Sequence record: MT446390.1
From: Escherichia phage TH12
Direction: 5' to 3' (one strand)
Length of the DNA: 64,000 nt
This document shows, one piece after another, positions 34,953-49,335 of this stretch. Below the pieces are notes generated by a model that worked only from the letters and a program-made list of their open reading frames with translations, was not told the origin of the DNA and made no database searches. Every line of letters begins with the position of its first letter. The stretch's first letter is position 1. Both the position numbers and the translations under genes were made by a program.

Positions 34953-34992
34953 TATAATGCCATGGACGGTAAACTAATTAAATGAGAGAAAT

Positions 34993-35628
34993 ATGAAAAC
35001 TACACCAATCACTATCGCTATTGACGCAATCGTAAAACAAGCTTCATCTCTTGCCACTATGGCTAAAGTAATTAGTCAAAACTCTGCCCGATATAATGCT
35101 ATTCTTGAAACTCTTCGTCGCCCTGGACTGAGTAATTATGAAAGCCGAGTAATTATTACAGGTGTTGGTAAGAACGCTAATATCGCAACTAAAGCTTCCG
35201 AGACTTTTGCTTCACTAGGTATTCCTAGCATGTATTTGAACACCGGGCATTATTCTCATGGCGACGCAGGGTTTATTGCACCTAATGATGTATTAGTTCA
35301 CATCAGTCGTTCTGGTAAGACTGAAGAAATGATAGGTGTTGCTAAACATCTTCGTATGATTCGTCCTCAGGTTAAACAGATTCTGTTACATTGTAACCCT
35401 GACATTCCGCAAGAATACGAAGCTCTTTTTGATTATACGTTCTGTACAGGCATCGCGGTAGAGGTTGATGAGAATTCTCTGGCTCCGACCATGTCCACTA
35501 CATTGTTGTTAGCGCTTATCGATACGTTTGCTATCAACCTTTCGTCTGAACGTGGATTTACCTCTAATGACTTCCTTAAGTTCCACCCTGGTGGTGCACT
35601 AGGTGCCATGTTACGAGGCGAACAATGA
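34993..35628 (+). CDS. SIS-domain sugar-phosphate isomerase (arabinose-5-phosphate isomerase-like)
   Basis: SIS motifs ITGVGKNANIATK, SRSGKTEE, HPGGALG; 211 aa. Confidence 0.8.
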   Translation: MKTTPITIAIDAIVKQASSLATMAKVISQNSARYNAILETLRRPGLSNYESRVIITGVGKNANIATKASETFASLGIPSMYLNTGHYSHGDAGFIAPNDVLVHISRSGKTEEMIGVAKHLRMIRPQVKQILLHCNPDIPQEYEALFDYTFCTGIAVEVDENSLAPTMSTTLLLALIDTFAINLSSERGFTSNDFLKFHPGGALGAMLRGEQ

Positions 35629-35768
35629 AAGCAATAACAATAGGACTTTTACTATTGATGCTTGTCATGACTATCTACTGGAGCTTAACGGCTCCAGTAA
35701 TGATTCCGACTCTTATAATCGGATGGATTATGATTGGACTACAAACAAAGTATGAATGCTTTAACTAG
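35625..35768 (+). CDS. Small membrane peptide (47 aa), uncertain
   Basis: ATGA overlap with SIS gene stop; hydrophobic; below track cutoff. Confidence 0.4.
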   Translation: MKAITIGLLLLMLVMTIYWSLTAPVMIPTLIIGWIMIGLQTKYECFN

Positions 35769-35809
35769 AATAGTGTACAATACACCTACTTACCAATGAG
35801 GACCACAAC

Positions 35810-37495
35810 ATGAAAAAAGCTGTTATTCTTGGTGCTGGACTGGCAACTCGTTTGTATCCAATAACGCACCATATTCCTAAGGTGCTTGTTAACTATAAAC
35901 AAGACACTATTCTGAGCAATTTGTATACAATTTATTCTGACCTTGGTGCAGATGAAATTATTGTAGTAGTTCATTCAAAATTTGTTGAAACTGTTCGAGC
36001 TTATTGTGAGCAAGAAGGGTTCAATGTGACTATTCGTACAGTTGATGAAGCGTATGGTTCTGCTTATGCTCTTGCTAAATTATACAAAGATTTAGATGGC
36101 CATAATGTAATTGTTAACTGGTGTGATATTATTCCTGATTTTGGTTCATGGTCTTGGAATGTTAACGCAATCTATGTTAAGGGTGACGAATGTCGATATA
36201 ATTTCGACGGTGAAAATATCACTAGCGTAGGTTCAACAGGTGGTAATGTTGTAGGAATTTATCAGTTCAAAGACTGGGAATTCTATATGGGTTCTACTGA
36301 TGAGGAAATTCATGAATACTGCAAAGGACGTGATTTCGTAGAATTCCTTTACGGCAGCGCATTCAATAAATCAGAGCTTATGAATCTAATTGATTTAGGT
36401 GATATGCCTAAACTTGAAAAAGCTCATGAAGTTCGTGAACTTAATCGTAGTTTTAATGCAGTTGAAATTGGTGAAGAAACTGTAACTAAATTCGCATTAA
36501 CCGAACAGGGCCGAGCTCTTCAGAAAGATGAGATTTCATGGTATCTTAAAGTGAAATCAGATTCAGTTCCTCAGTTAGTTTCTGTTAATGAAAATAACTT
36601 TGAAATGGAACGCATTAAAGGTAAGCCGGCATTTGAATATATTAAATCCAAATCGAGTCTTGCTCGTCCACAAATTGTTGATGCAATTTTAGATGCACTG
36701 AAATTCAGCACAGACACTTATTTTGTAAGTCCTGAAACTGTTCGTCGTGATTTCACTAAAGAATTCTATACGAAAGTTATTGATCGTTGTGAAAGCATTC
36801 AACCATTGATTGATTCATTTGGTAAAATCACACATGTGAACTACACTAAGATTGGACGTCTGAAGCCAATGCTGAAACAAGCTTTAGAACACCTTATTCG
36901 TTATCATAACCGTTCTCAGGGACAGTACTCTGTTATTCATGGTGACCCGAACTTCAGTAATACTATGATTACTGATAACGGCGAAGTCAAGTTTATCGAC
37001 CCTCGTGGATATTTTGGCGAAACCAAGATTTACGGGCCAAAATTGTACGATGAAGCTAAAGTGCTTTATGCTGTTTCAGGTTATGATGAATTCAATGCTA
37101 ATCCGACCTGGGGACAGTTTACTATTGATGAAACAACTTGTAATGTGACTATTAACATCAATCCATTAATTTACAAATATGGAAAGATGAGTTCGTTTAA
37201 CGAGTATCATCATTTGGCGGTGGCAATTATCTGGATTGCATTAGGTGGTTATTTCAAGAATAATCCACTTAAAGCGGTAGCCGCATATTATAAAGGTATG
37301 GAACTTCTGACTAAGCAATTACGCAACATGGGCCGTGTACTTCAAGACGGCTCTATTAGTTATGACGTAGCAGAACCTGTAACGGCTACTCTGATTACAA
37401 AAAATCCTGGTAAATGGGTACTAACTGATAAAGAAACTGGTGTTTCCTATCGTCCAATCGGTGGCGATATCACTCATCAATGGGAACGAATCTAA
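35810..37495 (+). CDS. Bifunctional sugar-1-phosphate nucleotidyltransferase / APH-fold sugar kinase
   Basis: N-term AVILGAGLATRLYPITHHIPKVLV (NDP-sugar pyrophosphorylase G-loop); C-term VIHGDPNFSNTMI...FIDPRG (APH/choline-kinase-type motifs); 561 aa. Confidence 0.75.
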   Translation: MKKAVILGAGLATRLYPITHHIPKVLVNYKQDTILSNLYTIYSDLGADEIIVVVHSKFVETVRAYCEQEGFNVTIRTVDEAYGSAYALAKLYKDLDGHNVIVNWCDIIPDFGSWSWNVNAIYVKGDECRYNFDGENITSVGSTGGNVVGIYQFKDWEFYMGSTDEEIHEYCKGRDFVEFLYGSAFNKSELMNLIDLGDMPKLEKAHEVRELNRSFNAVEIGEETVTKFALTEQGRALQKDEISWYLKVKSDSVPQLVSVNENNFEMERIKGKPAFEYIKSKSSLARPQIVDAILDALKFSTDTYFVSPETVRRDFTKEFYTKVIDRCESIQPLIDSFGKITHVNYTKIGRLKPMLKQALEHLIRYHNRSQGQYSVIHGDPNFSNTMITDNGEVKFIDPRGYFGETKIYGPKLYDEAKVLYAVSGYDEFNANPTWGQFTIDETTCNVTININPLIYKYGKMSSFNEYHHLAVAIIWIALGGYFKNNPLKAVAAYYKGMELLTKQLRNMGRVLQDGSISYDVAEPVTATLITKNPGKWVLTDKETGVSYRPIGGDITHQWERI

Positions 37496-37881
37496 TGCAC
37501 CGTGTAGAAAACATGCTTAATCTTTGTTTTGATGTCGATGATTGTATAACAGAGTGGAATAACAATCGTGATTACGTGAACTTCAAACCAGACGTCGAAA
37601 TGGTGTCTGCCATTAATGCCCTGTATGATGCAGGGCATACCATAACGCTTTACACTGCTCGTGGTATGAAGTCAGTAGGTCCTGGTCGTATAGCAATTGA
37701 CATTCTCCCAAGTCTGATTCAGAACTTGGCAAACATTGGCTTGAAGTACCATAATTTGCTAACACATAAACCAGTATATGATTGGATTATCGACGACAAA
37801 GCTATGCGTCCTGACGAATTCAAAGCTCTTATGAATAAAGGCGAATTCGAAACATTTAAATCGTATAAACCGAATCTATAA
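37495..37881 (+). CDS. HAD-superfamily phosphatase-like protein
   Basis: Motif I FDVDDCIT near N-terminus; TAATG overlap with upstream stop; 128 aa. Confidence 0.65.
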   Translation: MHRVENMLNLCFDVDDCITEWNNNRDYVNFKPDVEMVSAINALYDAGHTITLYTARGMKSVGPGRIAIDILPSLIQNLANIGLKYHNLLTHKPVYDWIIDDKAMRPDEFKALMNKGEFETFKSYKPNL

Positions 37882-37939
37882 TAATTTAAGTAAGACCTGC
37901 AAAAAAACCATCGCATCAATTAACGCGAGATGCAAAAAA

Positions 37940-39100
37940 ATGAATACTTTTAAAATCGGAACGAATTTTGATTTAGCTCTTCTTGATAAAATCGTAGAGC
38001 TCAATAAAACCTATCCTAATAGCTTGATAAACGAAGTATATGGCTCTACAAGAGAAATGGCTTTTGTAGCAGCCAGACCTGATTTTAGGCTTCCTGACGT
38101 TGACAAAAAGATGTTAGAAGACTACGTTAAACGTTGTAACGAATTAGGTATTTGCTTTAACTATACACTCAACACGATAAATCCTGGTTCAAAAAGAGAA
38201 CTAGTTGAGTGGAAGAAGAAAGCTATTCAGGATTATGTTCAGTATCTTTGGTCAATAGGCGTATGGCGTATTACTATCGCTAACCCTGTTGTTATGGAAA
38301 TTGTTCGTGAAGTCAATAAAGATATTGAGATTGAAGTTTCAACAATTCTACATGTCGATGCGGTAACTCAAATCAAATACTTACATGACCAATATAACAT
38401 CAAAAAGGTCTGTTGCGGAATTCATAAGAACCGTTCAGTTTCTTTCCTGAAGCGTGCAGCAGAGTTTTGCAATAAGAACAATATAATATTTGAAGTTCTT
38501 GTAAATGAGTTCTGTTCTAATGCTGGTAAAGGGTATACAACACATTGTAGTTATCGTGACTCTTGCTATATTTTCCATAGTACTGATGTTACAGCTGATG
38601 ATGCTAAATCCTTAAATGGATATCCAATGCAACACTGCATTAAAGCTCGTGATACAGACCCATTTAACTGGTTGAGAACTCGTTTTGTTCGTCCTCAAGA
38701 TTTGAAACTTTATAATGATATTGGTATCACTCAATTCAAAGTTTCAGGACGTACAGGTAGCACAGACTACATTTTGAAAGTTCTTGAAGCATACGCTTCT
38801 GAAAAGTTTGAAGGTAATTTGTTAGAACTGTGGAAGCCTTTAGAGACTATTTTCACTCTTGAAAATGAGACTGAGTTTTCACATACAGTAAATATTGAAA
38901 CCTCTTTGTTAGATGGCTTTTTAGAAAAAAGGTGGTTCAGACATCCAGATTTTGATTGTGCTAATGAAATCTGTGGGTCAACGTGTACATATTGTGAAAG
39001 GTATTATAAACGTCAATTATCTAAAAACGGGTTAGCAGAAAACTCCATATCTATTATTGATATAACTAACTCTGATGACGCTTTGAGGTACCCGGAATGA
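37940..39100 (+). CDS. Cys-rich enzyme, tentatively peptidase-U32-like (Fe-S?)
   Basis: 386 aa; Cys clusters VCCG, EFCSNAGKGYTTHCSYRDSCY, DCANEICGSTCTYC; family call is weak by-eye resemblance only. Confidence 0.6.
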   Translation: MNTFKIGTNFDLALLDKIVELNKTYPNSLINEVYGSTREMAFVAARPDFRLPDVDKKMLEDYVKRCNELGICFNYTLNTINPGSKRELVEWKKKAIQDYVQYLWSIGVWRITIANPVVMEIVREVNKDIEIEVSTILHVDAVTQIKYLHDQYNIKKVCCGIHKNRSVSFLKRAAEFCNKNNIIFEVLVNEFCSNAGKGYTTHCSYRDSCYIFHSTDVTADDAKSLNGYPMQHCIKARDTDPFNWLRTRFVRPQDLKLYNDIGITQFKVSGRTGSTDYILKVLEAYASEKFEGNLLELWKPLETIFTLENETEFSHTVNIETSLLDGFLEKRWFRHPDFDCANEICGSTCTYCERYYKRQLSKNGLAENSISIIDITNSDDALRYPE

Positions 39101-39336
39101 TTTCTAGAAAAAGTTTTAATTATAAACTTAACGAAGAGATTTTGACTATGAAACTGAACACTAACGAACAAATTCTTAAAAAGGCCCTTATGGGCCTGTT
39201 TGAAACCAAAGCGGCTAAAGTGATTAAAGAACCTGTTCAATTGGAATACTACACTGATGCATTCCTTCATAGTGTTCTTGGAAGTATAGATTCTGAAGCT
39301 TTACGTTATATCAACATTGTCAAGAAATTCAAATAA
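39097..39336 (+). CDS. Hypothetical protein (79 aa)
   Basis: ATGA overlap; GAGGT upstream. Confidence 0.5.
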   Translation: MISRKSFNYKLNEEILTMKLNTNEQILKKALMGLFETKAAKVIKEPVQLEYYTDAFLHSVLGSIDSEALRYINIVKKFK

Positions 39337-39378
39337 GCTTTATGAATTGAGTATATAATAAATTGTATTGAGGTAAAT

Positions 39379-40095
39379 ATGGGAAAACATAACACAATGA
39401 AATATATCAAAGCCGCAGATTTTCAAACCGCATTTAAAGCAGTCAATCGTGAAATTTTAGAAAACCCCGAATTCGTAACTGATTCTCGTATTGGACGTTG
39501 TAATGAAATTGGGTCTATGACAGTAGTTGTTGACACTCCATCATCATTCAAAATGACCGACCCACGTATTAACCGCATCTCTTATGAATATGCCGAAGAC
39601 TTCTGGAAGTTTATGATTTCTGGTGGTACCAACGCAGAAGAAGCGTTTAAGGCATATCCTAATGTCGCTAAATTTATTTCTAAACCAAAATCAGATGTTT
39701 TGCCGGCGAACTTCAACACTTTCTATGGTCCTCGCATTGCGGCCCAATTACCAACTCTTCTAAAAGAACTTAAAGAAAAACCTAACTCTCGAAGAGTTGT
39801 GTTCCAAATTCTAGAAAGTTCTGATCAGGCTTTGCTTGATTCGGACGAAACACTTGAATATCCATGTACTGACTCAGTAACTTATTATATTCGTGATGGT
39901 AAGCTTTATACCCACTGTCATATGCGTTCTCAGAACTGTGCTGTTGTTATGCAGTTGGATTTTTATCTCCAAGGAAAATTACTTCATTATATCGCTAACG
40001 AATGTGGTGTAGAAGTTGGTGATTATACTCATACCATGGTAAGTGCCCATGTGTTTGAACGTGATTTTGATTATGTTAAAGGATTCCTTGACTAA
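39379..40095 (+). CDS. 42: dCMP hydroxymethylase homolog (thymidylate-synthase superfamily), divergent
   Basis: KPNSRRVVFQIL vs T4 NPDSRRGIMIY; PCTDSVTYYIRDGK...HMRSQN vs T4 MCTNTVQYLIRDKK...NMRSND; SAHVFERDF vs SLHVYSRHF; 238 aa. Confidence 0.75.
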   Translation: MGKHNTMKYIKAADFQTAFKAVNREILENPEFVTDSRIGRCNEIGSMTVVVDTPSSFKMTDPRINRISYEYAEDFWKFMISGGTNAEEAFKAYPNVAKFISKPKSDVLPANFNTFYGPRIAAQLPTLLKELKEKPNSRRVVFQILESSDQALLDSDETLEYPCTDSVTYYIRDGKLYTHCHMRSQNCAVVMQLDFYLQGKLLHYIANECGVEVGDYTHTMVSAHVFERDFDYVKGFLD

Positions 40096-40994
40096 TGGCT
40101 ATTTTCCGCGTACCAATCTTGAGTATGCGGTCTTATGAAACTGGACAGTATGCTATCCTTAAGGATGGCAACTTCCAACTTCATTTGCACCGTGCTAATC
40201 CGGGTGATGTGATTACATATCCACGTAATGCATCTGATATTAAAGAATGCGAACGTCTTTTCCCAGAATTTAAGTTTGTTCCATTATGGTATAAAGATAA
40301 CGCGTATAACACTCGTAAATATTTCTGGACTGAAAATGAATTTGTGGTTGATTCATTAATTGATTATTATGATTGTGATTTTCTAATCACAGATATCACT
40401 GGTTATGGCGGCGCTTTTGATGTGGAATTCAATTTCAATATCACTGCAGACCCTAATAAACCACGTTTTTATATTGATGAATTCTTAAAAACCGACATGT
40501 TGTCTGTTAATCGTTCACTTCAAACTACTGTGTTGAATGAACGTCAAAAAGGAGTGCTGGTTAACGCAGGTGCAGATGGTAATAAGATTATCGTAACGCA
40601 GAAAGTTATACGTCCTTCCATCATGCAGCGTCTTGTAGGTGATTTGGCTCCTATTCATCTAGATGGTATTTTTCATCCATTTCGAATTAGTGACCCATGT
40701 TATCGTTTTGAACAAGTGGTTGAATGTGCAATTCAATTAGGTCAACCGCTTTATATAACCGATCCAAATAATAGCTTCGACAGAAATAAGTATCCTGAAG
40801 AAGCGCTGATTCGAATTTTTAAACCAACTAAAACTGAGTACTATCAAATTCTTAAAGGACGTCCGAAAATTCAATATTTCGAAAATCCTGAAGAAGTATT
40901 CCATCCAGGTCTTGGTGAGTTCATCTACTTTAATGCTTTAATTTCTTCGCCGTATAATATACCTAAATACGAAGATGTCGTAATCGAGGAATAA
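40095..40994 (+). CDS. Hypothetical protein (299 aa) at the T4 beta-gt position
   Basis: TAATG overlap with 42 homolog; no family recognised. Confidence 0.6.
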   Translation: MAIFRVPILSMRSYETGQYAILKDGNFQLHLHRANPGDVITYPRNASDIKECERLFPEFKFVPLWYKDNAYNTRKYFWTENEFVVDSLIDYYDCDFLITDITGYGGAFDVEFNFNITADPNKPRFYIDEFLKTDMLSVNRSLQTTVLNERQKGVLVNAGADGNKIIVTQKVIRPSIMQRLVGDLAPIHLDGIFHPFRISDPCYRFEQVVECAIQLGQPLYITDPNNSFDRNKYPEEALIRIFKPTKTEYYQILKGRPKIQYFENPEEVFHPGLGEFIYFNALISSPYNIPKYEDVVIEE

Positions 40995-40995
40995 A

Positions 40996-41544
40996 ATGGC
41001 TAAAATTATTTTAGTAGACGGCCCAGATAATGCTGGTAAAACAACTTTCATTAATGACATAATGGAAATTAGTGAAAGATATGTAAAGATTGATTTCCCT
41101 AAACGAACAGTTGATGGACGTTTCGATGTTAAGTCTCGAAATGAAGTTGGTTGTTTCGAAACGATGTTGAATTATTTAGACCCTACTAAGATTTATCTGT
41201 TAGACCGTGGATATATTAGTAACTGGGTTTATGGACGTATTCGACAAGATGCGGACTCGGTTCTTGACGTTTATGAACAGGACTATGTTCGTCTTTGCCA
41301 AAACCATGATGTGTTCACAATTATTTTAACACGTAACGAAATGACTGAAAGTTTTGAAGACGACCTTATTACTTTGTCTTCATTCGGTTTTAATACAGTC
41401 GTTTCACATTTTGAAGAGTTTGCAATTCATAACAAAATCCAAACATATCAATTACTTAATCATGATGGTGCTAACAAAGTTATAGGATTTAATGCAAGCG
41501 AACGTAATTGTTTGATTACAGAAATCATCAAATGGGCTCGTTAA
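40996..41544 (+). CDS. P-loop kinase, thymidylate/dNMP-kinase-like
   Basis: Walker A ILVDGPDNAGKTT; LLDRGYISNWVYGR resembles Tmk DR(Y/H) region; 182 aa. Confidence 0.6.
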   Translation: MAKIILVDGPDNAGKTTFINDIMEISERYVKIDFPKRTVDGRFDVKSRNEVGCFETMLNYLDPTKIYLLDRGYISNWVYGRIRQDADSVLDVYEQDYVRLCQNHDVFTIILTRNEMTESFEDDLITLSSFGFNTVVSHFEEFAIHNKIQTYQLLNHDGANKVIGFNASERNCLITEIIKWAR

Positions 41545-41562
41545 GAGCCATTTAAAGTTTTA

Positions 41563-41589
41563 AATGCTGTATAACCCTTAGTATATAAT
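41563..41589 (+). promoter_or_regulatory. Candidate MotA-dependent middle promoter for uvsX
   Basis: aaTGCTgtA MotA-box-like 41563-41571, 12-bp gap, tataat 41584-41589. Confidence 0.45.
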
Positions 41590-41642
41590 CGTCTTATCTT
41601 TTAAACATGAGTAAAATATAATGATGCCTATGGAAAAATACA

Positions 41643-42815
41643 ATGTCTGATTTAAAATCTCGTCTGATTAAAGCTTCTACTTCTAAAATGACTGCGGACT
41701 TGACTAAGTCTAAGCTGTTTAATAATCGTGATGAAGTCCCTACTCGTATTCCGATGTTGAATATCGCACTAGGTGGTGCTCTGAATGCAGGATTGCAATC
41801 AGGCTTGACTATTTTTGCTGCACCTTCTAAACACTTTAAAACGCTGTTTGGACTAACTATGGTTGCAGCGTATATGAAGAAATATAAAGATGCAATCTGT
41901 TTGTTTTATGACTCAGAATTTGGTGCTTCAGAATCTTATTTTCGTTCAATGGGTGTTGATTTAGACCGTGTAGTTCATACTCCGATTCAATCTGTCGAAC
42001 AACTTAAAGTTGATATGACTAATCAGCTTGACGCGATTGAACGCGGTGATAAAGTTATTATCTTTATCGATTCAATCGGTAATACTGCATCTAAGAAAGA
42101 AACCGAAGATGCATTGAATGAGAAAGTCGTAGGTGATATGTCTCGTGCTAAGGCACTTAAATCTCTGTTCCGTATTGTGACTCCTTATCTGACTATTAAA
42201 GATATTCCATGTGTTGCAATCAACCATACAGCAATGGAAATCGGCGGATTGTATCCTAAAGAGATTATGGGCGGTGGTACAGGTATTCTTTATTCTGCCA
42301 ACACGGTATTTTTTATCTCTAAACGTCAGGTTAAAGAAGGTACAGAATTGACCGGTTATGACTTCACGTTGAAAGCGGAAAAATCTCGTACAGTTAAAGA
42401 GAAATCTACTTTCCCGATCACGGTTAATTTTGATGGCGGTATTGACCCATTCAGTGGCTTGTTAGAAATGGCAACTGAAATTGGTTTTGTAGTTAAGCCT
42501 AAAGCCGGGTGGTATGCTCGTGAATTCCTTGACGAAGAAACAGGCGAAATGATTCGTGAAGAGAAATCATGGCGTGCTAAAGCTACTGATTGTGTAGAAT
42601 TCTGGGGACCTTTGTTTAAACATAAGCCTTTCCGAGATGCAATTGAAACTAAATATAAACTAGGTGCTATCTCTTCTATTAAAGAAGTTGATGACGCTGT
42701 TAACGACCTTATTAATTGCAAAGCAACAACTAAAGTTCCGGTTAAAGCTTCTGATGCTCCGTCTGCAGCAGATATAGAAAACGACCTTGACGAAATGGAA
42801 GATTTCGATGAATAA
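41643..42815 (+). CDS. uvsX: RecA-like recombinase UvsX
   Basis: MSDLKSRLIKASTSKMTADLT...matches T4 UvsX N-terminus; C-terminal acidic tail; 390 aa. Confidence 0.95.
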   Translation: MSDLKSRLIKASTSKMTADLTKSKLFNNRDEVPTRIPMLNIALGGALNAGLQSGLTIFAAPSKHFKTLFGLTMVAAYMKKYKDAICLFYDSEFGASESYFRSMGVDLDRVVHTPIQSVEQLKVDMTNQLDAIERGDKVIIFIDSIGNTASKKETEDALNEKVVGDMSRAKALKSLFRIVTPYLTIKDIPCVAINHTAMEIGGLYPKEIMGGGTGILYSANTVFFISKRQVKEGTELTGYDFTLKAEKSRTVKEKSTFPITVNFDGGIDPFSGLLEMATEIGFVVKPKAGWYAREFLDEETGEMIREEKSWRAKATDCVEFWGPLFKHKPFRDAIETKYKLGAISSIKEVDDAVNDLINCKATTKVPVKASDAPSAADIENDLDEMEDFDE

Positions 42816-43149
42816 TCTCGATGATTTAAATCTAGAAATCGTTGATGAATCCCCTTCTTCGGAAGGGGAAGACATTCGCAAAGAACGAGTGTTTAATGAA
42901 TCTCTTAAAATTATCCGTTCAGCAATGGAAAATGTCATTCAAGAGATTCTGATTACACTTGAAGACGGTTCTCATCATATAGTCTATATTACAAAACTAG
43001 ACTGGGTTGATGGTAAAATCGTAATGGACTTTGCAGTTCTTGACCAGGACAGAAAAGCAGAACTTGCACCACATGTTGAAAAATGTGTTACAATGCAGGT
43101 ACAACAAGCTTTTAATGAACGAACCAAGAAAAAATTTAAATTCTTTTAA
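42808..43149 (+). CDS. Hypothetical protein, gp40-like by synteny (113 aa)
   Basis: Internal ATG overlapping uvsX stop; sits between uvsX and 41 as T4 gene 40. Confidence 0.5.
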   Translation: MNNLDDLNLEIVDESPSSEGEDIRKERVFNESLKIIRSAMENVIQEILITLEDGSHHIVYITKLDWVDGKIVMDFAVLDQDRKAELAPHVEKCVTMQVQQAFNERTKKKFKFF

Positions 43150-43158
43150 GGAGTTATC

Positions 43159-44601
43159 GTGGTAGAAATTATTTTGTCTCATCTCGTATATGACCAGGCT
43201 TATTTTTCTAAGGTCTGGCCTTATATGGATTCTGATTACTTTGAGCGTGGACCGGCAAAAAATGTCTTTAAAATTATAAAGAACCACGTTAACGAATATA
43301 ACGCAATGCCATCCATTAATGCATTAAAGGTGGCTTTAGATAACAGTTCTTTAACTGAAGCCGAATATAAAGGAACTTCAGACTTAATTGAAAAATTGGC
43401 TGATACTCCTGAAGACCACGAATGGTTGGTTAAAGAAACTGAGAAATATGTCCAGCAAAAAGCGATGTATAATGCTACATCCAAAATCATTGAGATTCAG
43501 TCTAATGCTGAACTACCTCCAGAACAACGTAACAAGAAAATGCCTGATGTAGGAGCTATTCCTGATATTATGCGTCAAGCACTTTCAATTTCGTTCGATA
43601 GTTATGTTGGACATGACTGGATGGAAGACTACGAAGCACGCTGGCTTTCTTATCTAAATAAAGCACGTAAGGTCCCGTTCAAATTAAACATTTTGAATAA
43701 AATAACCAAAGGTGGTGCAGAAACAGGTACACTAAACGTTTTAATGGCCGGTGTTAACGTCGGTAAATCTTTAGGCCTTTGTTCACTTGCTGCAGATTAT
43801 CTTCAAACAGGTCATAATGTTCTTTATATTTCCATGGAAATGGCTGAAGAAGTTTGTGCTAAGCGTATAGATGCAAACATGCTTGACGTATCACTCGATG
43901 ATATCGATGATGGTAACGTATCTTATGCTGAATATAAAGCCAAGATGGAAAAATGGCGTTCAAAAACAACATTAGGACGTTTAGTAGTTAAACAGTATCC
44001 TACTGGTGGAGCTAATGCTAATACATTCCGTGCGTTGCTTAATGAGTTAAAACTTAAGAAGAACTTTGTGCCATCTGTAATCATGGTTGATTACTTAGGT
44101 ATTTGTGGGTCTTGTCGTATCAGAGTTTACACTGAAAATAGCTACACATTAGTTAAAGCTATCGCAGAAGAACTTCGTGCATTAGCAGTAGAATCTGAAA
44201 CAGTTCTATGGACTGCAGCTCAAGTAGGACGTGCAGCATGGGATGCTTCAGACATGAACATGAGTGATATCGCAGAATCAGCAGGTTTACCAGCAACGGC
44301 AGATTTCATGTTGGCCGTAATTGAAACCGAAGAACTTGCACAAGCTGAACAACAACTTATCAAACAAATCAAATCACGATACGGTGATAAGAATAAGTGG
44401 AACAAGTTCTTGATGGGTGTACGTAAAGGCAATCAGAAATGGGTTGAGATTGAGCAAGAAGGCATGAACACACCTAACACAGTAAATGAAAACGCAGGTG
44501 CTCAGATGCGTCAGGCAGAGGTGAATCGTACGGAACGCGTAGGTAAAGCCAAAGCAACACGTGCTGACCTAGATAGCTTAGCCAATGAGTTAAAATTTTA
44601 A
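43159..44601 (+). CDS. 41: Replicative DNA helicase gp41 (DnaB-like)
   Basis: GTG start after TAAGGAG; MVEIILSHLVYDQAYFSKVWPYMDS and Walker A GVNVGKS; 480 aa. Confidence 0.95.
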   Translation: MVEIILSHLVYDQAYFSKVWPYMDSDYFERGPAKNVFKIIKNHVNEYNAMPSINALKVALDNSSLTEAEYKGTSDLIEKLADTPEDHEWLVKETEKYVQQKAMYNATSKIIEIQSNAELPPEQRNKKMPDVGAIPDIMRQALSISFDSYVGHDWMEDYEARWLSYLNKARKVPFKLNILNKITKGGAETGTLNVLMAGVNVGKSLGLCSLAADYLQTGHNVLYISMEMAEEVCAKRIDANMLDVSLDDIDDGNVSYAEYKAKMEKWRSKTTLGRLVVKQYPTGGANANTFRALLNELKLKKNFVPSVIMVDYLGICGSCRIRVYTENSYTLVKAIAEELRALAVESETVLWTAAQVGRAAWDASDMNMSDIAESAGLPATADFMLAVIETEELAQAEQQLIKQIKSRYGDKNKWNKFLMGVRKGNQKWVEIEQEGMNTPNTVNENAGAQMRQAEVNRTERVGKAKATRADLDSLANELKF

Positions 44602-44605
44602 TAAA

Positions 44606-44625
44606 AAGGAGACTTCGGTCTCCTT
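44606..44625 (+). terminator. UUCG hairpin (terminator/processing candidate)
   Basis: aaggagac-ttcg-gtctcctt; short T-tract. Confidence 0.5.
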
Positions 44626-44689
44626 TCGGGGTTTACATCTTCCTCTAGGCATGATATGATGAACTTACACCAACCAAGAGGAAAACATT

Positions 44690-45064
44690 ATGAATATGTC
44701 TCAAGCAATTTTTACTGCAATCACAGAAAACACAACTGTTGAAGTAGTTTCTCCACTGGCAACCTACGTTATTCTTGCCCCTAAAACTATTGTATCTCGT
44801 ATGGAAAACATGGGCAAACGTATCGTACAAATTGTCGGAGCCGGAAATCAAAAACTTGATTATCTGCGAACCATCAAAGCTTATGAACATTTCCAACTCG
44901 AAAAAGGTTCTCCTATCCGGGTAGAACTCGTAAATGGTGATATCGTTCGAGCAATGTTCCATCATTTCTATGCATTGAATGACCCATCTAAAGCGGTTCG
45001 TTTAATTGCATACGACGCAAACCAAAACGAAATCAACGCAGATATATCTAAATTACGTTTTTAA
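44690..45064 (+). CDS. Hypothetical protein (124 aa)
   Basis: ATG after AGAGGA; early-promoter-like gtttac upstream. Confidence 0.6.
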   Translation: MNMSQAIFTAITENTTVEVVSPLATYVILAPKTIVSRMENMGKRIVQIVGAGNQKLDYLRTIKAYEHFQLEKGSPIRVELVNGDIVRAMFHHFYALNDPSKAVRLIAYDANQNEINADISKLRF

Positions 45065-45115
45065 GTTTACTTCTCCGGTAGTTGTGTTATTATAGACCTA
45101 TCAACTACTGGAGAA
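45065..45115 (+). promoter_or_regulatory. T4-type early promoter with 14-bp inverted repeat sequestering the SD
   Basis: gtttac 45065-45070, tattat 45088-45093; arms ttctccggtagttg / caactactggagaa. Confidence 0.6.
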
Positions 45116-45119
45116 CAAA

Positions 45120-45437
45120 ATGAAAACCATCGATTGTAAAGCAGAATTTAAGATTTTTTATCACGGTTCAAGTAGTTCAGCTAACATCGAAAACATGCTT
45201 TGTCCTCCTGAAGAAACAGGAGTTCTGTCTGAAACTGGACGTAAGAAAAACTTGGATCGTGTATTCTTTACTGAAGATATCGGTTTAGCAAAGATTTATG
45301 CAGGACGAGCAGCACGCTCTTATGGAGGTGAACCACGTCTCTATCGAGTAATTTCTCCGGTAGACGTAGTTCAAATGAATAATACTAAAGGTGCTACAGT
45401 TTATCACGCTGAATGGGCCTTCTGTGAGGAAATATGA
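45120..45437 (+). CDS. Hypothetical protein (105 aa)
   Basis: ATG after TGGAG. Confidence 0.6.
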   Translation: MKTIDCKAEFKIFYHGSSSSANIENMLCPPEETGVLSETGRKKNLDRVFFTEDIGLAKIYAGRAARSYGGEPRLYRVISPVDVVQMNNTKGATVYHAEWAFCEEI

Positions 45438-45625
45438 GCAAATTAACTAAAGTTACTTTTATCGGTTGGTTTAAAAGCGGCGAGATGTTCACTAAAGATA
45501 TCATGTTATCAGGTGATCGCGAAGAAATCGAGTGGGTTGCGGTACAACTTGCTGAAGTGAACAAAGCATTAGTTAAAGCATTTGTTAATGACGAGAAAGT
45601 TTTTGAAGCTGATTTCAGAGGATAA
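45434..45625 (+). CDS. dmd: Dmd (discriminator of mRNA degradation; RnlA/LsoA antitoxin)
   Basis: VTFIGWFKSGEMFTKDIML...AEVNKALVKAFVNDEKVFEADFRG matches recalled T4 Dmd; 63 aa. Confidence 0.8.
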   Translation: MSKLTKVTFIGWFKSGEMFTKDIMLSGDREEIEWVAVQLAEVNKALVKAFVNDEKVFEADFRG

Positions 45626-45626
45626 T

Positions 45627-45839
45627 ATGTATTCAACTGTGTTTAAACCATCGACATACGAATTTGCATCAACTACACAATGGAAAGCTCTTATTCTGGA
45701 AGGATGGGAACTAATGATGGACTGCGAAGCATCTGAAAAGTTTCCACACGGCAAAGTGGACTTCGTTAAATTTGCTGTACGTCCGACTAAACGACAAATT
45801 CGTCAAGAAAAACGCAAATTTCGCAAAAGTTTAAAATAG
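45627..45839 (+). CDS. Small basic protein (70 aa), paralog-like to 17072-17242
   Basis: ATG after GAGGA; C-terminal FAVRPTKRQIRQEKRKFRK. Confidence 0.5.
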   Translation: MYSTVFKPSTYEFASTTQWKALILEGWELMMDCEASEKFPHGKVDFVKFAVRPTKRQIRQEKRKFRKSLK

Positions 45840-45899
45840 CTGTTTACAAGCACTACATAATGTGTTACTATCTTTCTATCAACTACAGAGGAAATTGAA

Positions 45900-46268
45900 A
45901 TGAAAAAATTAATCACTTTAGCAATGGTATTTGGATTAACCGGATGTGGTGCCCATGGCTTTATCCCTAATAATGTTGGCCAATTGATTTATAACCCGAA
46001 TGTTAAACAGTACAACCAACCTAAAGTTGAAGTGGAAGACCCGGTTACTGTAGGTAATCGAATGATTCAAGCTGATGCCCATGCTCAACGTTATCGTGAT
46101 TCTGATACTGTAGCATTGTCAAAAGAACAACGCGTTAAAGAACATTGTCTACAGGCTACTGAAATCGCATTCATTCGCTATGTTGAAACAACTGGTAAAG
46201 AGCCTTCCCAGAAACAAATCGCGAATAACTACGTCCAGTGTATTGAACGTTTAAACAAATTTAATTAA
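45900..46268 (+). CDS. Lipoprotein (122 aa)
   Basis: Signal peptide MKKLITLAMVFGLTGC with lipobox LTGC; own early promoter. Confidence 0.65.
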   Translation: MKKLITLAMVFGLTGCGAHGFIPNNVGQLIYNPNVKQYNQPKVEVEDPVTVGNRMIQADAHAQRYRDSDTVALSKEQRVKEHCLQATEIAFIRYVETTGKEPSQKQIANNYVQCIERLNKFN

Positions 46269-46329
46269 TTGGTTTACGCCAAAGTTAAAACAAGATACTA
46301 TAAACATAACAAATCAAGAGGAAATTAAC

Positions 46330-46578
46330 ATGGAATTATTCGTAGCTAGTTCAGTAGCAGTTTTAATCGCAGGTATTGGTTCAATCATCATTTACATGTT
46401 GCCTTGGGTAATCGCACTTATTCGTGGCACAAAAAGCACAACAGCAATCTTCTTTGTATCTTTACTCTTTAACTGGACGATGATTGGTTGGATTGGAACT
46501 TTAATTTGGTCTATCGTTGCCGAAAAGAAATCTGCTCAGCAGCCTCAACAAGTAATTATTATTCGCGAAAAAGAATAA
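46330..46578 (+). CDS. Superinfection-immunity (Imm)-family membrane protein
   Basis: LPWVIALIRGTKSTTAIFFVSLLFNWTMIGWIGTLIWSI resembles Imm-family signature; 82 aa, two TM. Confidence 0.65.
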   Translation: MELFVASSVAVLIAGIGSIIIYMLPWVIALIRGTKSTTAIFFVSLLFNWTMIGWIGTLIWSIVAEKKSAQQPQQVIIIREKE

Positions 46579-46641
46579 ACTTGTTTACATTATAGATGGA
46601 CTATGGTATAGTAGTCCTATCAAATCAACTAAGGAGTTAAA

Positions 46642-46935
46642 ATGAAAAAGTTATCATTGGCAGCAATCTTACTCGCAGTATCATGTGCACCAGCTCCAGT
46701 TACAGCAGGTTATGATAAAGACCTCTGTGAGTGGTCAATGACTGCAAATCAAGAAGATGTTGAACAACAAATCTTCTCTGATATCGTGAACATCACTAAA
46801 CGAGACCGTCCTAATATGGTTAATAAAGTTGTTGAACAACTTAAGTCTGGCGGTATCATGCAGTACAACTATGTTTTGTATTGTGACCCTAATTTCGATA
46901 ACAAAGATATCGTAACCGAAATCACAGGTGAGTAA
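46642..46935 (+). CDS. sp: Spackle-like periplasmic superinfection-exclusion protein
   Basis: Signal peptide MKKLSLAAILLAVSCAPAPVTA then GYDKDLCEWSMTA...SGGIMQYNYVLYCD, as recalled for T4 Sp (61.3); 97 aa. Confidence 0.7.
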   Translation: MKKLSLAAILLAVSCAPAPVTAGYDKDLCEWSMTANQEDVEQQIFSDIVNITKRDRPNMVNKVVEQLKSGGIMQYNYVLYCDPNFDNKDIVTEITGE

Positions 46936-46936
46936 T

Positions 46937-47587
46937 ATGATTTATTATATGCACAAAAATGCACCATTTAAATATGGTAAATTTCCTAATGCACAATGTT
47001 ATAATATAACGCCGAATGAAAATAATAACGGATACCATATTGGTGTAATTTTTGTAATTGTTAAAGATAATGAAATCGTTGCCTGGGCAGATTTTAAAGG
47101 TACAACATATGATGTTAATCCTGTGCCTTTCACATATTACAATATAATGGATTTGGCATATGATTATAATTGGTTTACTCATGATACTCTGGCACATGTT
47201 GAAGGCGTAGGATTTGATATCTCTTATTCTAGTTATTCATTATGTCCTATGAGCCGAGCTCACGGTAAAGATGTATCATATCTTTCAATTCGGAAACGTG
47301 TAAACTTCAAACGTAGTACAGAGTATGTTGGTGGACTCTTTGTTAAAGATAATAAAATAACTCGTATTAGTTATCCTTTAAGTGTAGGTCAAAAAGATGT
47401 TGATGTTGATTTAGACTTAACTGAAAGTAACATTAATCGTATTGCTTCTGTATATTTTGATATCGATGAAAAAATTGTAGTGTGTGGATACGAATTACCA
47501 CCTGAAGAAAAGGTTGAAGCAATTGAAGTCGAATTAGAAATTTCTGTTGATGACCAAATATTTAATGCATTTATGAATCGAGGTTAA
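46937..47587 (+). CDS. Hypothetical protein (216 aa), AT-rich
   Basis: ATG after AGGTGAG; track start 46928 is GTG. Confidence 0.6.
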   Translation: MIYYMHKNAPFKYGKFPNAQCYNITPNENNNGYHIGVIFVIVKDNEIVAWADFKGTTYDVNPVPFTYYNIMDLAYDYNWFTHDTLAHVEGVGFDISYSSYSLCPMSRAHGKDVSYLSIRKRVNFKRSTEYVGGLFVKDNKITRISYPLSVGQKDVDVDLDLTESNINRIASVYFDIDEKIVVCGYELPPEEKVEAIEVELEISVDDQIFNAFMNRG

Positions 47588-47588
47588 A

Positions 47589-47786
47589 ATGACTACTGCA
47601 ATTTGCACTGGTTCTAAAATTAGTGTTTTTACAAGTTTTGAAGATTATGAAGTTGTTTCAAAACACCAATACAATATTAGCGTAAAAGCTAATGATGGTG
47701 TAATTTGGAATATTCCACACTATGAAGACACTACATATGAAGTCACAGATGCGAACGGTGATAAAGCGATCTTTGTGATTGATTAA
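47589..47786 (+). CDS. Hypothetical protein (65 aa)
   Basis: ATG after GAGGT. Confidence 0.5.
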   Translation: MTTAICTGSKISVFTSFEDYEVVSKHQYNISVKANDGVIWNIPHYEDTTYEVTDANGDKAIFVID

Positions 47787-47805
47787 ATATACTCAGGAGG
47801 TACCT

Positions 47806-48273
47806 ATGGGTATTATTAACACTGCAATAGATTCTGTTTACGCATATAAGTTTATTCGACTAATGCAAAAACCTTTTACCGAATGGAAAGCGTACGAAGC
47901 CAAAATAATCGACGAACGTGGAAGTGTTCTTAAACGTCCTTCTACTCCCGAAGAGAAAGCGGCTTATACACCTTTTCATGCTTCAGTTCGTTCAATGAAG
48001 CGAATGATGAGTACTGTTCCAGGTCTTAATGGAATGGCCTCAATGATGTCTGCCTGGAGTGCTGTAGCTTCACGCTATAACATTACAGAAGAACAGCAGA
48101 AAGAAATATTTAAAGAACTCCCTTTATTTGAGGATATGGTGGCTGGTGATTCAGGTGGCAGTCCTCAAGCTATTGCATCAGGAACTACTACAGGTGCAAT
48201 TGTAAATAAAGGTCCAGAACAAATTCCTTCCAAGAAAAGAAAGCGAATTAAAGTAAATATTAATAAGTTGTGA
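47806..48273 (+). CDS. Hypothetical protein (155 aa)
   Basis: Internal ATG after AGGAGG. Confidence 0.55.
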   Translation: MGIINTAIDSVYAYKFIRLMQKPFTEWKAYEAKIIDERGSVLKRPSTPEEKAAYTPFHASVRSMKRMMSTVPGLNGMASMMSAWSAVASRYNITEEQQKEIFKELPLFEDMVAGDSGGSPQAIASGTTTGAIVNKGPEQIPSKKRKRIKVNINKL

Positions 48274-48312
48274 TAAGATGGCCTTATTAATTTAAGGCCT
48301 CTGGAGAATACT

Positions 48313-49335
48313 ATGGCTGAATGGATAGATAATGAATTTGCTTATCGTGCGTTTTCTCACCTCCCTCGTTTTAGACAAATCAATAATTCAAGCACATTTA
48401 AATTAACATTTCGTTGTCCAGTTTGTGGCGACTCTCAGACAGATGCAATGAAAGCCCGCGGATGGTATTATGGCGGTACTCCAGGTAATGTGCATTGCTA
48501 TAACTGTCAATATCATAATACAATTTCTGGATACTTAAAAGAGTACGATGAAGAGCTTTATCGCGAGTATCTAATGGAAGTTCGTAAAGAAAAAGCTAGA
48601 ATGGAACCAAAGATTGAAAAGGTTCCTGAAGCTAAGCCGGAGCCAGAGAAAAAGACTATAAATTCTTTGCCGTCTTGTTCTCGTCTGGACAAGTTGCCTG
48701 AAGAGCATCCTATTGTGAAATATGTTAAGTCTCGGTGTATTCCTAAAGAATCATGGAACAGATTATGGTTCACATTAGAATGGCCCAAATTGGTCAACAA
48801 GATTCAACCTGGTACGTATAAGAAAGAGATTCCTGAACCGCGTTTAGTGATTCCTATTTTTAATAAAGATGGGAAGGCCGAGTCATTCCAAGGACGTGCA
48901 CTTCGTAAAGATGCTCCTCAGAAATATATCACTATTAAAGCGTTTGAGTCTGCAACAAAAATTTATGGTGTTGAACGTGTTAAGGAAGGAGACGTCTGGG
49001 TAATGGAAGGTCCTATTGATAGTTTATTCATACCCAATGCAATCGCTATTACAGGCGGCTCAATAGATTTAGATGTGGTACCATTTAAAGAACGTCGGGT
49101 ATGGGTAATGGATAATGAACCTAGGCATCCAGATACTATAGCTCGTATGAAGCGATTAGTTGATGCAGGCGAACGTGTCATGTTCTGGGACCGAGCTCCA
49201 TGGAGATCAAAGGATGTGAATGATATGGTAATGAAAGAAAATGCAACACCACAAGAAATTTTAGAATATATGAAACAGAATATTTCAAGTGGGTTGCATG
49301 CTAAAATGAGATTATCTCGTTATTCGAAGATTTAA
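48313..49335 (+). CDS. 61: DNA primase gp61
   Basis: N-terminal zinc ribbon CPVCGDS...CYNC and TOPRIM-like region; 340 aa; position upstream of 56. Confidence 0.9.
   Translation: MAEWIDNEFAYRAFSHLPRFRQINNSSTFKLTFRCPVCGDSQTDAMKARGWYYGGTPGNVHCYNCQYHNTISGYLKEYDEELYREYLMEVRKEKARMEPKIEKVPEAKPEPEKKTINSLPSCSRLDKLPEEHPIVKYVKSRCIPKESWNRLWFTLEWPKLVNKIQPGTYKKEIPEPRLVIPIFNKDGKAESFQGRALRKDAPQKYITIKAFESATKIYGVERVKEGDVWVMEGPIDSLFIPNAIAITGGSIDLDVVPFKERRVWVMDNEPRHPDTIARMKRLVDAGERVMFWDRAPWRSKDVNDMVMKENATPQEILEYMKQNISSGLHAKMRLSRYSKI

Follow-up and report, generated by a model that had tools for sequence, protein, structure and literature searches.

Why do two superinfection-exclusion genes, imm and sp, lie side by side in Escherichia phage TH12, and what became of the position that imm occupies in phage T4? 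We examined these questions in a window of 64,000 nt of the phage TH12 sequence (MT446390.1); all coordinates given here are positions in that window. The genome is that of an RB69-like (Mosigvirus) T-even phage.

Three contiguous genes for envelope-directed proteins

A first-pass annotation had described an Imm-like and a Spackle-like gene as neighbours, and the two ORFs indeed follow each other on the + strand, 63 bp apart. Directly upstream of them lies a homolog of T4 imm.1.

45900 to 46268, + strand: imm.1 homolog, coding for a predicted lipoprotein of 122 aa (PF17578, phrog_1754, match to T4 Imm.1)
46330 to 46578, + strand: imm ortholog, coding for an 82-aa inner-membrane superinfection-immunity protein (PF14373, BLASTP, phrog_1039)
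46642 to 46935, + strand: sp (spackle, 61.3) ortholog, coding for a 97-aa precursor (PF25676, PDB matches)

The proposed Imm-family membership of the 46330 ORF was borne out by profile searches. Its product matches the Pfam model PF14373 (Imm_superinfect) over all 42 model positions with 57.2 bits (cutoff 27.9), and T4 Imm itself scores 58.2 bits. In the PHROGs database it matches phrog_1039, 'immunity to superinfection', with 108 bits. PF14373 is a short model of 42 positions, and members of it are also found by tblastn in unrelated phages of 45-100 kb, at 35-42% identity. The ORF might thus be an unrelated member of the family, acquired from bacteria or from phages of a different group, rather than the counterpart of T4 imm. 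We rejected this idea, whose probability is negligible, based on the gene upstream, which is the imm.1 homolog, and on identity to T4 Imm from end to end (54 of 83 positions, or 65%, with one gap; BLASTP E-value 3e-37). The alignment includes parts beyond the Pfam model, namely the hydrophobic segment at the N-terminus and QVIIIREKE, common to both proteins, at the C-terminus. T4 Imm (83 aa) and the TH12 protein have the same layout, two hydrophobic stretches flanking a basic loop, followed by a polar tail. In the latter, the hydrophobic stretches span residues 1-34 and ~38-64 on the Kyte-Doolittle scale, a pattern like that of T4 Imm, with the basic loop RGTKST (R32-K35) between them and a polar C-terminal tail ending in IIIREKE. 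No solved structure of Imm was found for comparison in a PDB search. Sequence comparisons thus confirm 46330-46578 as a full-length ortholog of T4 imm.

The identification of the 46642 ORF as a Spackle gene is similarly confirmed at the sequence level. The protein matches PF25676 (T4_Spackle) with 142.6 bits (cutoff 27) and phrog_1586, 'spackle periplasmic', and it is 65% identical to T4 Sp over 97 residues (BLASTP E-value 1e-49). PDB entries 6X6O, 6XC0 and 6XC1 match residues 1-97 with an E-value of 5e-39, and the chain of the mature form in 7CN6 aligns to residues 23-97. Like T4 Spackle (gp61.3; 6X6O, 6XC0, 7CN6), the TH12 protein is a 97-aa precursor, with a hydrophobic N-terminus (1-23), a signal peptide (1-22) and a mature periplasmic part of 75 residues (23-97). 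T4 Spackle harbours a Cys29-Cys81 disulfide and contacts the gp5 lysozyme through Ser32, Met33, Thr34, Ala35, Gln37 and Asn76 (PMC7677548). Both Cys residues are present in the TH12 protein, and all six contact residues are identical. The right neighbour of sp, 61.2/AdfA, is the same in both phages; the left neighbour is 61.4 in T4 and imm here, and no other sequence-level difference was noted.

The imm.1 product matches PF17578 (DUF5481) with 37.4 bits (cutoff 27; 239 bits for T4 Imm.1) and phrog_1754 with 100.5 bits. It is 32% identical to T4 Imm.1 (E-value 8e-19), and its RB69 counterpart carries the gene name imm.1. The protein harbours a lipobox, LTGC, at residues 13-16. In 27 homologs collected in two database searches, C16 and a pair of cysteines, C83 and C114, show no or almost no variation, one homolog being devoid of the lipobox Cys. 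An AlphaFold2 model has a mean pLDDT of 60, with the C-terminal three-helix part (48-120) alone moderately confident, and Foldseek found no match with E < 2 between this model and the PDB.

Gene order at the new and the old site

The three genes are contiguous in 154 phage records, all Mosigvirus, at 95-99% identity. RB69 (NC_004928, RB69p037-p035) and the 153 other Mosigvirus records have the order 61.4, imm.1, imm, sp, 61.2, as here, and imm with its flanking spacers is at least 97% identical in all 154 (98.9% in RB69, with few point differences). The imm.1-imm-sp order is already known, as the RefSeq annotation of RB69 names all three genes in sequence. Real, fixed in the genus and publicly annotated, the arrangement is therefore ordinary for these phages. 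In our literature search, we found no discussion of a relocation of imm in RB69 or Mosigvirus, and no reports of expression or phenotypes for imm.1, imm or sp of any Mosigvirus.

Elsewhere, imm is found just after gene 43, in T4, Gaprivervirus P896, Dhakavirus AnYang, Moonvirus Merlin, Klebsiella phage Roth76 and a T4-related metagenomic contig (L029). Neither imm nor imm.1 lies within 3 kb of sp in any of 17 non-Mosigvirus Sp loci sampled from IMG/VR. In T4, imm lies between 43 and 42, and the distance from imm to sp is ~6 kb; here, imm is found behind imm.1 between 61.4 and sp, 63 bp from the latter. The spacer between 61.4 and sp is empty, with a length of 59-60 bp, in T4 and two Dhakaviruses. 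The Imm.1 family adjoins imm in all six lineages examined. Its gene is upstream of imm in Mosigvirus, in a Moonvirus, in a Klebsiella phage and in T4, where it is directly upstream, and downstream of imm in Dhakavirus and Gaprivervirus, whose Imm.1-like versions of 166-167 aa fall outside the Pfam model. The elements of the new site are the following.

45627 to 45839, + strand: gene 61.4 homolog (DUF7279), left neighbour of the insertion (PF23945, T4 gp61.4)
45840 to 45899, + strand: spacer between 61.4 and imm.1, 60 bp, with TTTACA-N17-TACTAT at 45843-45871 and a ribosome-binding site
46269 to 46329, + strand: spacer between imm.1 and imm, 61 bp, with TTTACG-N17-TACTAT at 46273-46301 and a GAGG ribosome-binding site
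46579 to 46641, + strand: spacer between imm and sp, 63 bp, with TTTACA-N17-TATAGT at 46584-46612 and an AGGAG ribosome-binding site
46937 to 47587, + strand: gene 61.2/AdfA (anti-DarT factor A) homolog, right neighbour as in T4

The 61.4 product, gp61.4 in RB69, matches PF23945 with 71.6 bits and is 57% identical to T4 gp61.4 over 45627-45836; the longest ORF opens with a TTG at 45582, and the T4-matching part starts at 45627. The 61.2 product matches PF23813 (AdfA) with 391 bits and is 64% identical to T4 gp61.2. Its likely start is the ATG at 46937, as in the annotation of CAU_ECP01, the mechanical ORF starting from a GTG at 46928.

The motif present in the three spacers is of the early type TTTACW-N17-TAYWAT, as defined for T-even early promoters (PMC4122927). 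With at most one mismatch allowed, the window contains 30 such consensus matches, which are not measured transcription starts, for 8.6 expected, and no shuffled sequence reached 30. The imm.1 motif fits exactly, scores 9/12 in a sigma-70 scan and has an upstream TG. The sp motif has one mismatch, scores 10/12 and also has an upstream TG, and its -10 box is embedded in a short palindrome, GGACTA...TAGTCC. The imm motif is the weakest of the three: it has one mismatch, scores 8/12 and was not listed by a stricter scan. Its -35 box is TTTACG here versus TTTACA in RB69, where the fit is exact. In T4, the imm.1-imm spacer is 11 bp long and has no such motif, in contrast with the 61 bp found here. 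The claim of the first-pass annotation that imm and sp each have a promoter thus holds in the form of promoter-like consensus matches, one of them weak, and it extends to imm.1.

The spacer preceding sp is 77% alike the Dhakavirus spacer between 61.4 and sp, including the GGAGTTAAA ribosome-binding region, and the 46584-46612 element is probably the resident sp promoter. The spacer preceding imm.1 is 80% alike the Dhakavirus spacer between 43 and imm, and 73% alike the T4 spacer between 43 and imm.1. As all the spacers belong to one promoter family, 58-80% alike in 60-bp comparisons, this likeness cannot prove which promoter travelled.

It has been proposed that modules of T4-type genomes are shuffled by way of PeSL/early-promoter cassettes (PMC2839356, PMC4122927). 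Similarly, the plastic 41-61 region has short intergenic cassettes with the TTTACW-N17-TAYWAT motif between its genes, and such cassettes flank the inserted pair. In contrast with PeSLs, the spacers around imm.1, imm and sp are devoid of the upstream stem-loop/terminator half, and a scan detected no terminator-like sites in 45800-46700. We therefore rejected a full PeSL reading and describe these elements as early-promoter cassettes. A full stem-loop with a promoter is present at 44602-44689. A direct repeat of leader and start codon (45878-45911 and 46624-46653) brackets the insert of ~742 nt.

At the old site and at the 42 homolog, three genes are relevant.

34993 to 35628, + strand: gene for arabinose-5-phosphate isomerase (SIS domain), which opens the arabinosylation cluster
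35625 to 35768, + strand: small ORF for a 47-aa membrane protein (phrog_3610), footprint of the old imm site
39379 to 40095, + strand: '42 homolog', coding for a thymidylate-synthase-family enzyme (PF00303, 57 bits), without adjoining imm

Searches of the whole 64-kb window by tblastn with the T4 and TH12 Imm sequences identified the 46330 locus only, the next best match having an E-value of 0.17. Thus, no imm-like ORF lies beside the 42 homolog, and the absence of imm from its T4 position had been correctly noted. The 42 homolog is 25% identical to T4 gp42 and equals RB69p048, a reported 5-hydroxy-dCMP synthase (PMC13326640). The isomerase gene (PF01380; phrog_5670, 388 bits) equals RB69p055, which has been assigned to UDP-arabinose synthesis (PMC6024577, PMC13326640). 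It fills the exact slot of T4 imm.1-imm, between gene 43 and the conserved small membrane ORF. The latter matches phrog_3610 with 92 bits, and the ORFs found next after imm in T4 (unannotated; 8728-8877 in the T4 locus used), P896 and AnYang share 53-58% identity with it. Its start overlaps the isomerase stop (ATGA). In T4, Gaprivervirus and Dhakavirus, the overlap is of the same kind but with the stop of imm; imm of TH12 is uncoupled from it. In RB69, the note to RB69ORF054c reads 'similar to T4 42-imm intercistronic region'.

Origin of the imm-sp adjacency

Based on these analyses, the imm.1-imm cassette, which directly precedes sp in the spacer after 61.4 within the 41-61 early region, was very probably relocated there from behind 43, with T4-like functions predicted for Imm and Sp. 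The moved unit is this two-gene cassette: that imm had changed place was rightly seen in the first-pass annotation, but a move of imm by itself is incomplete, as imm.1 moved too. The likeliest route would be recombination among copies of the early-promoter/leader cassette that recur between the genes of this plastic region. It could have taken place inside the lineage, or a T4-type cassette could have been captured from a relative during co-infection. The native copy would have been lost upon occupation of the old slot by the isomerase gene. Most simply, the adjacency to sp would be a by-product of this reshuffling rather than a new mechanism.

The gene order of two genomes is symmetric, and the reverse direction can be envisaged, with the Mosigvirus order as the ancestral one and the position after 43 as derived. 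No specific feature speaks for it. The finding of imm behind 43 in six lineages, including the outgroups Moonvirus and the Klebsiella T4-like phage, the same empty 60-bp spacer between 61.4 and sp in T4 and Dhakavirus, and the persistence behind 43, in TH12, of the small ORF to which imm is coupled in other phages all argue against this direction. It is also disfavoured by parsimony and appears very unlikely. As for the capture route, it supposes a Dhakavirus-type ancestor, with the order 43, imm, small ORF, long Imm.1-like lipoprotein and island, that lost its native genes and gained T4-type imm.1-imm at 61.4/sp from a Tequatrovirus-like co-infector. We consider such a history quite conceivable, if somewhat less probable than its converse. 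In agreement with it, TH12 Imm is 66% identical to T4 Imm versus 54-57% to the Dhakavirus and Gaprivervirus proteins, and gp43 shows the opposite pattern (62% to T4 versus 83% to Dhakavirus and 75% to Gaprivervirus). The TH12 Imm.1 is moreover of the short DUF5481 type encoded upstream of imm, as in T4, in contrast with the longer, downstream Dhakavirus and Gaprivervirus versions, and the 561-aa and 133-aa island genes are common to TH12 and Dhakavirus. Nevertheless, with 32% identity between the Imm.1 proteins, any donor was not close to known Tequatroviruses, and the T4-like flanks gp41, gp61 and 61.2 indicate that the affinity of Imm may reflect a local mosaic. The genome is mosaic, with gp41 (86%) and gp61 (74%) closer to T4, and gp43 (83%), Sp (73%) and Dmd (65%) closer to Dhakavirus. 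Given these mixed affinities and the limited phylogenetic power of short proteins, identity matrices do not separate an internal move from the capture of a T4-like cassette. Synonymous/nonsynonymous comparison with RB69 and CAU_ECP01 yielded just 2 to 11 differing codons per gene.

The first-pass annotation had further suggested a consolidation of the exclusion functions into one module, perhaps with displacement by the modification island. The presence of the isomerase gene in the old slot agrees with displacement. Nevertheless, Dhakavirus AnYang carries homologs of the 561-aa and 133-aa island genes and still has imm right after 43, which indicates that the island alone does not force imm out. 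For consolidation, selection would have joined imm and sp for co-regulation or co-inheritance as one module, for instance so that co-adapted alleles stay linked in a phage population with frequent recombination. The contiguity of three envelope-directed genes in an order fixed in 154 of 154 Mosigvirus records, and the shortening of the imm-sp linkage relative to T4, would fit this proposal. However, a single origin in one tight clade provides no replication, and the arrangement was found in no other sampled lineage with Sp. In addition, imm and sp are already early genes in T4, imm.1, imm and sp would be early at either location, and the presence of a promoter-like element for each gene makes no new co-regulation evident. 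Imm and Sp of T4 each contribute to exclusion independently, as established by classical genetics. With one event in one genus and no sign of selection, consolidation finds no support past the adjacency itself and is improbable. We thus favour relocation of the cassette, with the sp adjacency as its by-product.

Exclusion functions and a possible role for Imm.1

By analogy with T4, Imm would stop the DNA of superinfecting T-even phages from crossing the inner membrane, and Spackle, once secreted, would bind the tail lysozyme gp5 of incoming phages and inhibit it. A ~60-bp spacer that holds an early-promoter-like motif and a ribosome-binding site lies in front of each gene, and all three products are therefore predicted to be made within minutes of infection. 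They would reach three envelope compartments, Imm.1 as a predicted lipoprotein, Imm in the inner membrane and Sp in the periplasm.

No molecular account of how Imm acts is known to us, nor is any function of Imm.1. This gives relevance to a tentative proposal, based on the presence of Imm.1 next to imm in six lineages and on the persistence of their linkage after relocation in Mosigvirus: the Imm.1-family lipoproteins (phrog_1754) might be unrecognized partners of Imm in T-even exclusion, possibly forming in Mosigvirus, with Imm and Sp, a three-layer, co-inherited envelope barrier.

The cluster represents the normal exclusion genes of RB69-like phages and matters little as such. It illustrates cleanly how genes are reshuffled between two plastic early regions in T-even phages: the empty site, the filled site and the footprint are all visible, and the arabinosylation pathway's first gene has taken over the old imm slot. 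A single fresh lead emerged as a by-product of the analysis, the testable hypothesis that Imm.1 may cooperate with Imm.

Orthologs of imm.1, imm and sp in the window

Both ORFs of the exclusion pair described in the first-pass annotation were found, at 46330 and 46642, in the following gene order.

Gene layout from gene 43 to gene 61 of the window
32241-34952, +, gene 43, preceded by regA (+)
34993-39336, +, sugar-modification cluster, 3' of gene 43
35625-35768, +, small membrane ORF of 47 codons (phrog_3610 at 92 bits; 53-58% identity to other phages' copies)
39379-40095, +, thymidylate-synthase-family gene (the '42 homolog')
43159-44601, +, gene 41, preceded by two more cluster genes, then uvsX, then 40
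between gene 41 and the lipoprotein gene, +, two ORFs of unknown function, then dmd, then 61.4
45840-45899, +, spacer 5' of imm.1
45900-46268, +, lipoprotein gene (imm.1 homolog)
46269-46329, +, spacer 5' of imm
46330-46578, +, imm ortholog
46579-46641, +, spacer 5' of sp
46642-46935, +, sp ortholog
48313-49335, +, primase gene 61, preceded by 61.2/AdfA and two small ORFs (+)

We fetched the corresponding region of T4, translated its genes and compared the products directly with the window proteins. The 46330 product matches PF14373 (Imm_superinfect) at 57.2 bits (cutoff 27.9), and PHROGs concurs. It is 65% identical to T4 Imm across the full 82-83 residues in the direct comparison, shares with it the C-terminal QVIIIREKE, outside the Pfam model, and has the same hydropathy pattern: an extended hydrophobic segment at the N-terminus, separated by a basic loop from another hydrophobic segment, which a polar tail follows. 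The Spackle identity of the 46642 product is likewise supported by PF25676 (T4_Spackle; 142.6 bits) and PHROGs, with 65% identity to T4 Sp over all 97 residues. Its alignment with the T4 Spackle structure 6X6O covers the whole protein, and the mature-form chain 7CN6 aligns to its residues 23-97. Every one of the residues assigned in the T4 structure to the disulfide (Cys29, Cys81) and to contacts with the gp5 lysozyme (Ser32-Ala35, Gln37, Asn76) (PMC7677548) is present.

The lipoprotein gene directly 5' of imm, overlooked in the first-pass annotation, is the homolog of T4 imm.1. Its product matches Pfam DUF5481 above cutoff, a model whose archetype is T4 Imm.1 itself (239 bits), and is 32% identical to the latter (E 8e-19). 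It carries a lipobox (LTGC), and two of its cysteines form a pair that is conserved in 27 homologs. Structure prediction (pLDDT 60) gave no more than a three-helix bundle at the C-terminus, at moderate confidence, with no fold match in the PDB. As the T4 order is 43 - imm.1 - imm - 42, the unit found at the new site is the pair imm.1-imm. The family phrog_1754 takes in both Imm.1 proteins, together with 146-147-residue proteins just 5' of imm in Moonvirus and a Klebsiella phage and 166-167-residue lipoproteins just 3' of imm and a small ORF in Dhakavirus and Gaprivervirus. By tblastn, DUF5481-type Imm.1 occurs in 656 records, 154 from Mosigvirus and 502 others; Imm at 60-80% identity to that of the window likewise occurs in 502 records, an agreement in the number of records. 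Thus, the pairing of imm with a gene for an Imm.1-family lipoprotein is conserved and outlasted a change of locus, which suggests a functional partnership between the two proteins.

Other features of the interval were noted. The two ORFs between 41 and dmd (44690-45064, +, 124 residues, phrog_10668; 45120-45437, +, 105 residues, phrog_2110) have no Pfam match, and each has its own early-promoter-like spacer 5' of it. T4 has no ORFs at this site; in Dhakavirus, an ORF equal in length to the 105-residue one occupies the same position. For 61.2/AdfA, the mechanically called ORF has a GTG start overlapping the end of sp (46928-46940, +); the ATG at 46937, two bases past the sp stop and used in the closest annotated genome, is more plausible. 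Lastly, a 164-residue ORF (47779-48273, +) joins an N-terminal phrog_2086 part to a C-terminal 61.1-like part (phrog_1823), with T4 gp61.1 aligning to 48109-48252. The RB69 RefSeq record has two separate genes there (p031, p032), so that this ORF represents either a gene fusion or a difference of annotation.

Gene order among relatives and the former imm site

The 1.9 kb around the pair are 98% identical to Escherichia phage CAU_ECP01 in a DNA database search, and 154 further records, mostly of RB69-like phages, match them at 95-99%; RB69 is classified as Mosigvirus. In T4, Gaprivervirus P896, Dhakavirus AnYang, Moonvirus Merlin and Klebsiella phage Roth76, imm lies directly 3' of gene 43, and a T4-related metagenomic contig reads 43 - frd.3-like - imm.1 - imm - small ORF - 42. 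Conversely, the junction between 61.4 and sp is an 'empty' spacer of 59-60 bp in T4 and two Dhakaviruses. When imm.1-imm-sp served as a single query in a distant-mode DNA search, the three genes were contiguous in only 154 of the 741 records matched, all at 95-99% identity to the window; imm and both its flanking spacers are at least 97% identical in those same records. In IMG/VR, 19 loci with a gene for an Sp relative (46-99% identity) were compared; imm.1 and imm lie within 3 kb in just two, both Mosigvirus-like. On these grounds, the imm.1-imm-sp order is a derived character of a single genus.

The absence of imm from its T4 position is genuine, since tblastn with the window and T4 Imm proteins revealed no second imm-like sequence in the 64 kb (next match, E 0.17). 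The former site is nevertheless recognizable. In T4, a 49-codon ORF for a small membrane peptide, unannotated in RefSeq (8728-8877, -, of the T4 locus), overlaps the imm stop codon by ATGA, and the same ORF follows imm with the same overlap in Gaprivervirus, where it is annotated, and in Dhakavirus. The family, phrog_3610, comprises peptides of 45-49 residues with a conserved ...MIPTLIIGW...KYEC[F/I]N sequence. The window copy is still 3' of gene 43, but its ATGA overlaps the stop codon of an arabinose-5-phosphate isomerase gene (34993-35628, +), which therefore fills the exact slot of T4 imm.1-imm. The RB69 annotators had flagged a likeness to the 'T4 42-imm intercistronic region'.

This isomerase catalyses the first step of the proposed RB69 UDP-arabinose pathway (PMC6024577; PMC13326640). 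The earlier suggestion that the modification island displaced imm is thus supported in part, an island gene occupying the old slot. Displacement was not a necessity, as AnYang has the order 43 - imm - small ORF - Imm.1-like lipoprotein - homologs of window cluster genes (a 561-residue protein at 42% identity and a 133-residue one at 64%), so that one genome can house imm alongside much of the island. The '42 homolog' is only 25% identical to T4 gp42; its RB69 counterpart is reported in a 2026 paper to make 5-hydroxy-dCMP, not hydroxymethyl-dCMP, and hence the DNA modification is arabosyl-5-hydroxycytosine rather than arabinosyl-hmC (PMC13326640).

Spacers, repeats and a possible route of the cassette

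Small genes, each with a promoter-like cassette 5' of it, form a mosaic in the 41-61 interval. The spacers 5' of imm.1, imm and sp, of 60-63 bp each, all contain GTTTAC, a -10 box 17 bp on and a ribosome-binding site. As predicted promoters, they deviate from the T-even early consensus TTTACW-N17-TAYWAT (PMC4122927) by 0, 1 and 1 mismatches, respectively; matches of this type number 30 in the whole window versus 8.6 expected. The sp spacer has the best sigma-70 match of the three (10/12) and the imm spacer the weakest motif. The imm-proximal -35 box (46273-46278, +) reads TTTACG in the window versus the consensus TTTACA in RB69; the one base that differs lies where an effect on promoter strength is to be expected. 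Because merely 11 bp separate imm.1 and imm in T4, a promoter close to imm would be a trait of Mosigvirus. With no terminator-like element detected between the three genes in a sequence scan, overlapping early transcripts would be expected.

The spacer 3' of gene 41 (44602-44689, +) carries a perfect stem-loop, GGAGAC-TTCG-GTCTCC, then TTT, directly before a GTTTACA early-promoter motif. It thus has both the terminator and the promoter of a full PeSL-type cassette (stem-loop and early promoter), unlike the imm.1, imm and sp spacers, which are devoid of the stem-loop half.

The imm.1-proximal spacer resembles spacers 3' of gene 43 (80% in Dhakavirus, 73% in T4), and the sp-proximal spacer is 77% alike to the resident Dhakavirus sp spacer. 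In addition, a direct repeat of ~35 bp spanning leader, ribosome-binding site and start codon, ATCAACTA...ATGAAAAA[A/G]TTA, occurs at 45878-45911 and 46624-46653 (+), its copies ~742 nt apart and flanking the imm.1-imm insert; both proteins begin with MKKL. The repeat may be a recombination scar, or just the similar leaders of two secreted-protein genes. Together, the spacer likenesses and the repeat fit a process put forward for T4-type genomes (PMC2839356, PMC4122927), in which repeated promoter/leader cassettes recombine. The imm.1-imm cassette may have moved in this way, although such short sequences fall short of proof.

The cassette may have changed place inside the lineage, or it may have been acquired from a T4-like phage. 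Capture would agree with the identities of Imm, 66% to T4 but 54% to Dhakavirus, and with an Imm.1 of the short T4 type. However, affinities differ among neighbouring genes: gp43 (83% vs 62%), Sp (73% vs 65%) and Dmd (65% vs 55%) are nearer to Dhakavirus than to T4, whereas gp41 (86% identity to T4), gp61 (74%) and 61.2 (64%), like Imm, are closer to T4; at the Dhakavirus loci inspected, no 61.2 was found beside sp. By these comparisons, the region (32241-49335) is a local mosaic at single-gene grain.

Meaning of the imm-sp adjacency

In the window, the orthologs of T4 imm.1, imm and sp follow the order annotated for RB69, whose RefSeq record already names them so. We found no paper commenting on the relocation, which is plainly visible in the public annotations of RB69 and about 150 relatives; no new kind of element is involved. 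By orthology to the T4 proteins, Imm should keep superinfecting DNA from passing the inner membrane, and Sp should act as an inhibitor of gp5, the tail lysozyme of incoming phages, a mechanism for which T4 structures provide the demonstration (PMC7677548). There is no sign that their adjacency has created a new mechanism: a single evolutionary event brought them together, both would be early genes at either locus, and each has kept its own promoter-like element. For these reasons, the adjacency, read in the first-pass annotation as consolidation into one module, is most likely a neutral by-product, and an adaptive reading of it appears improbable.
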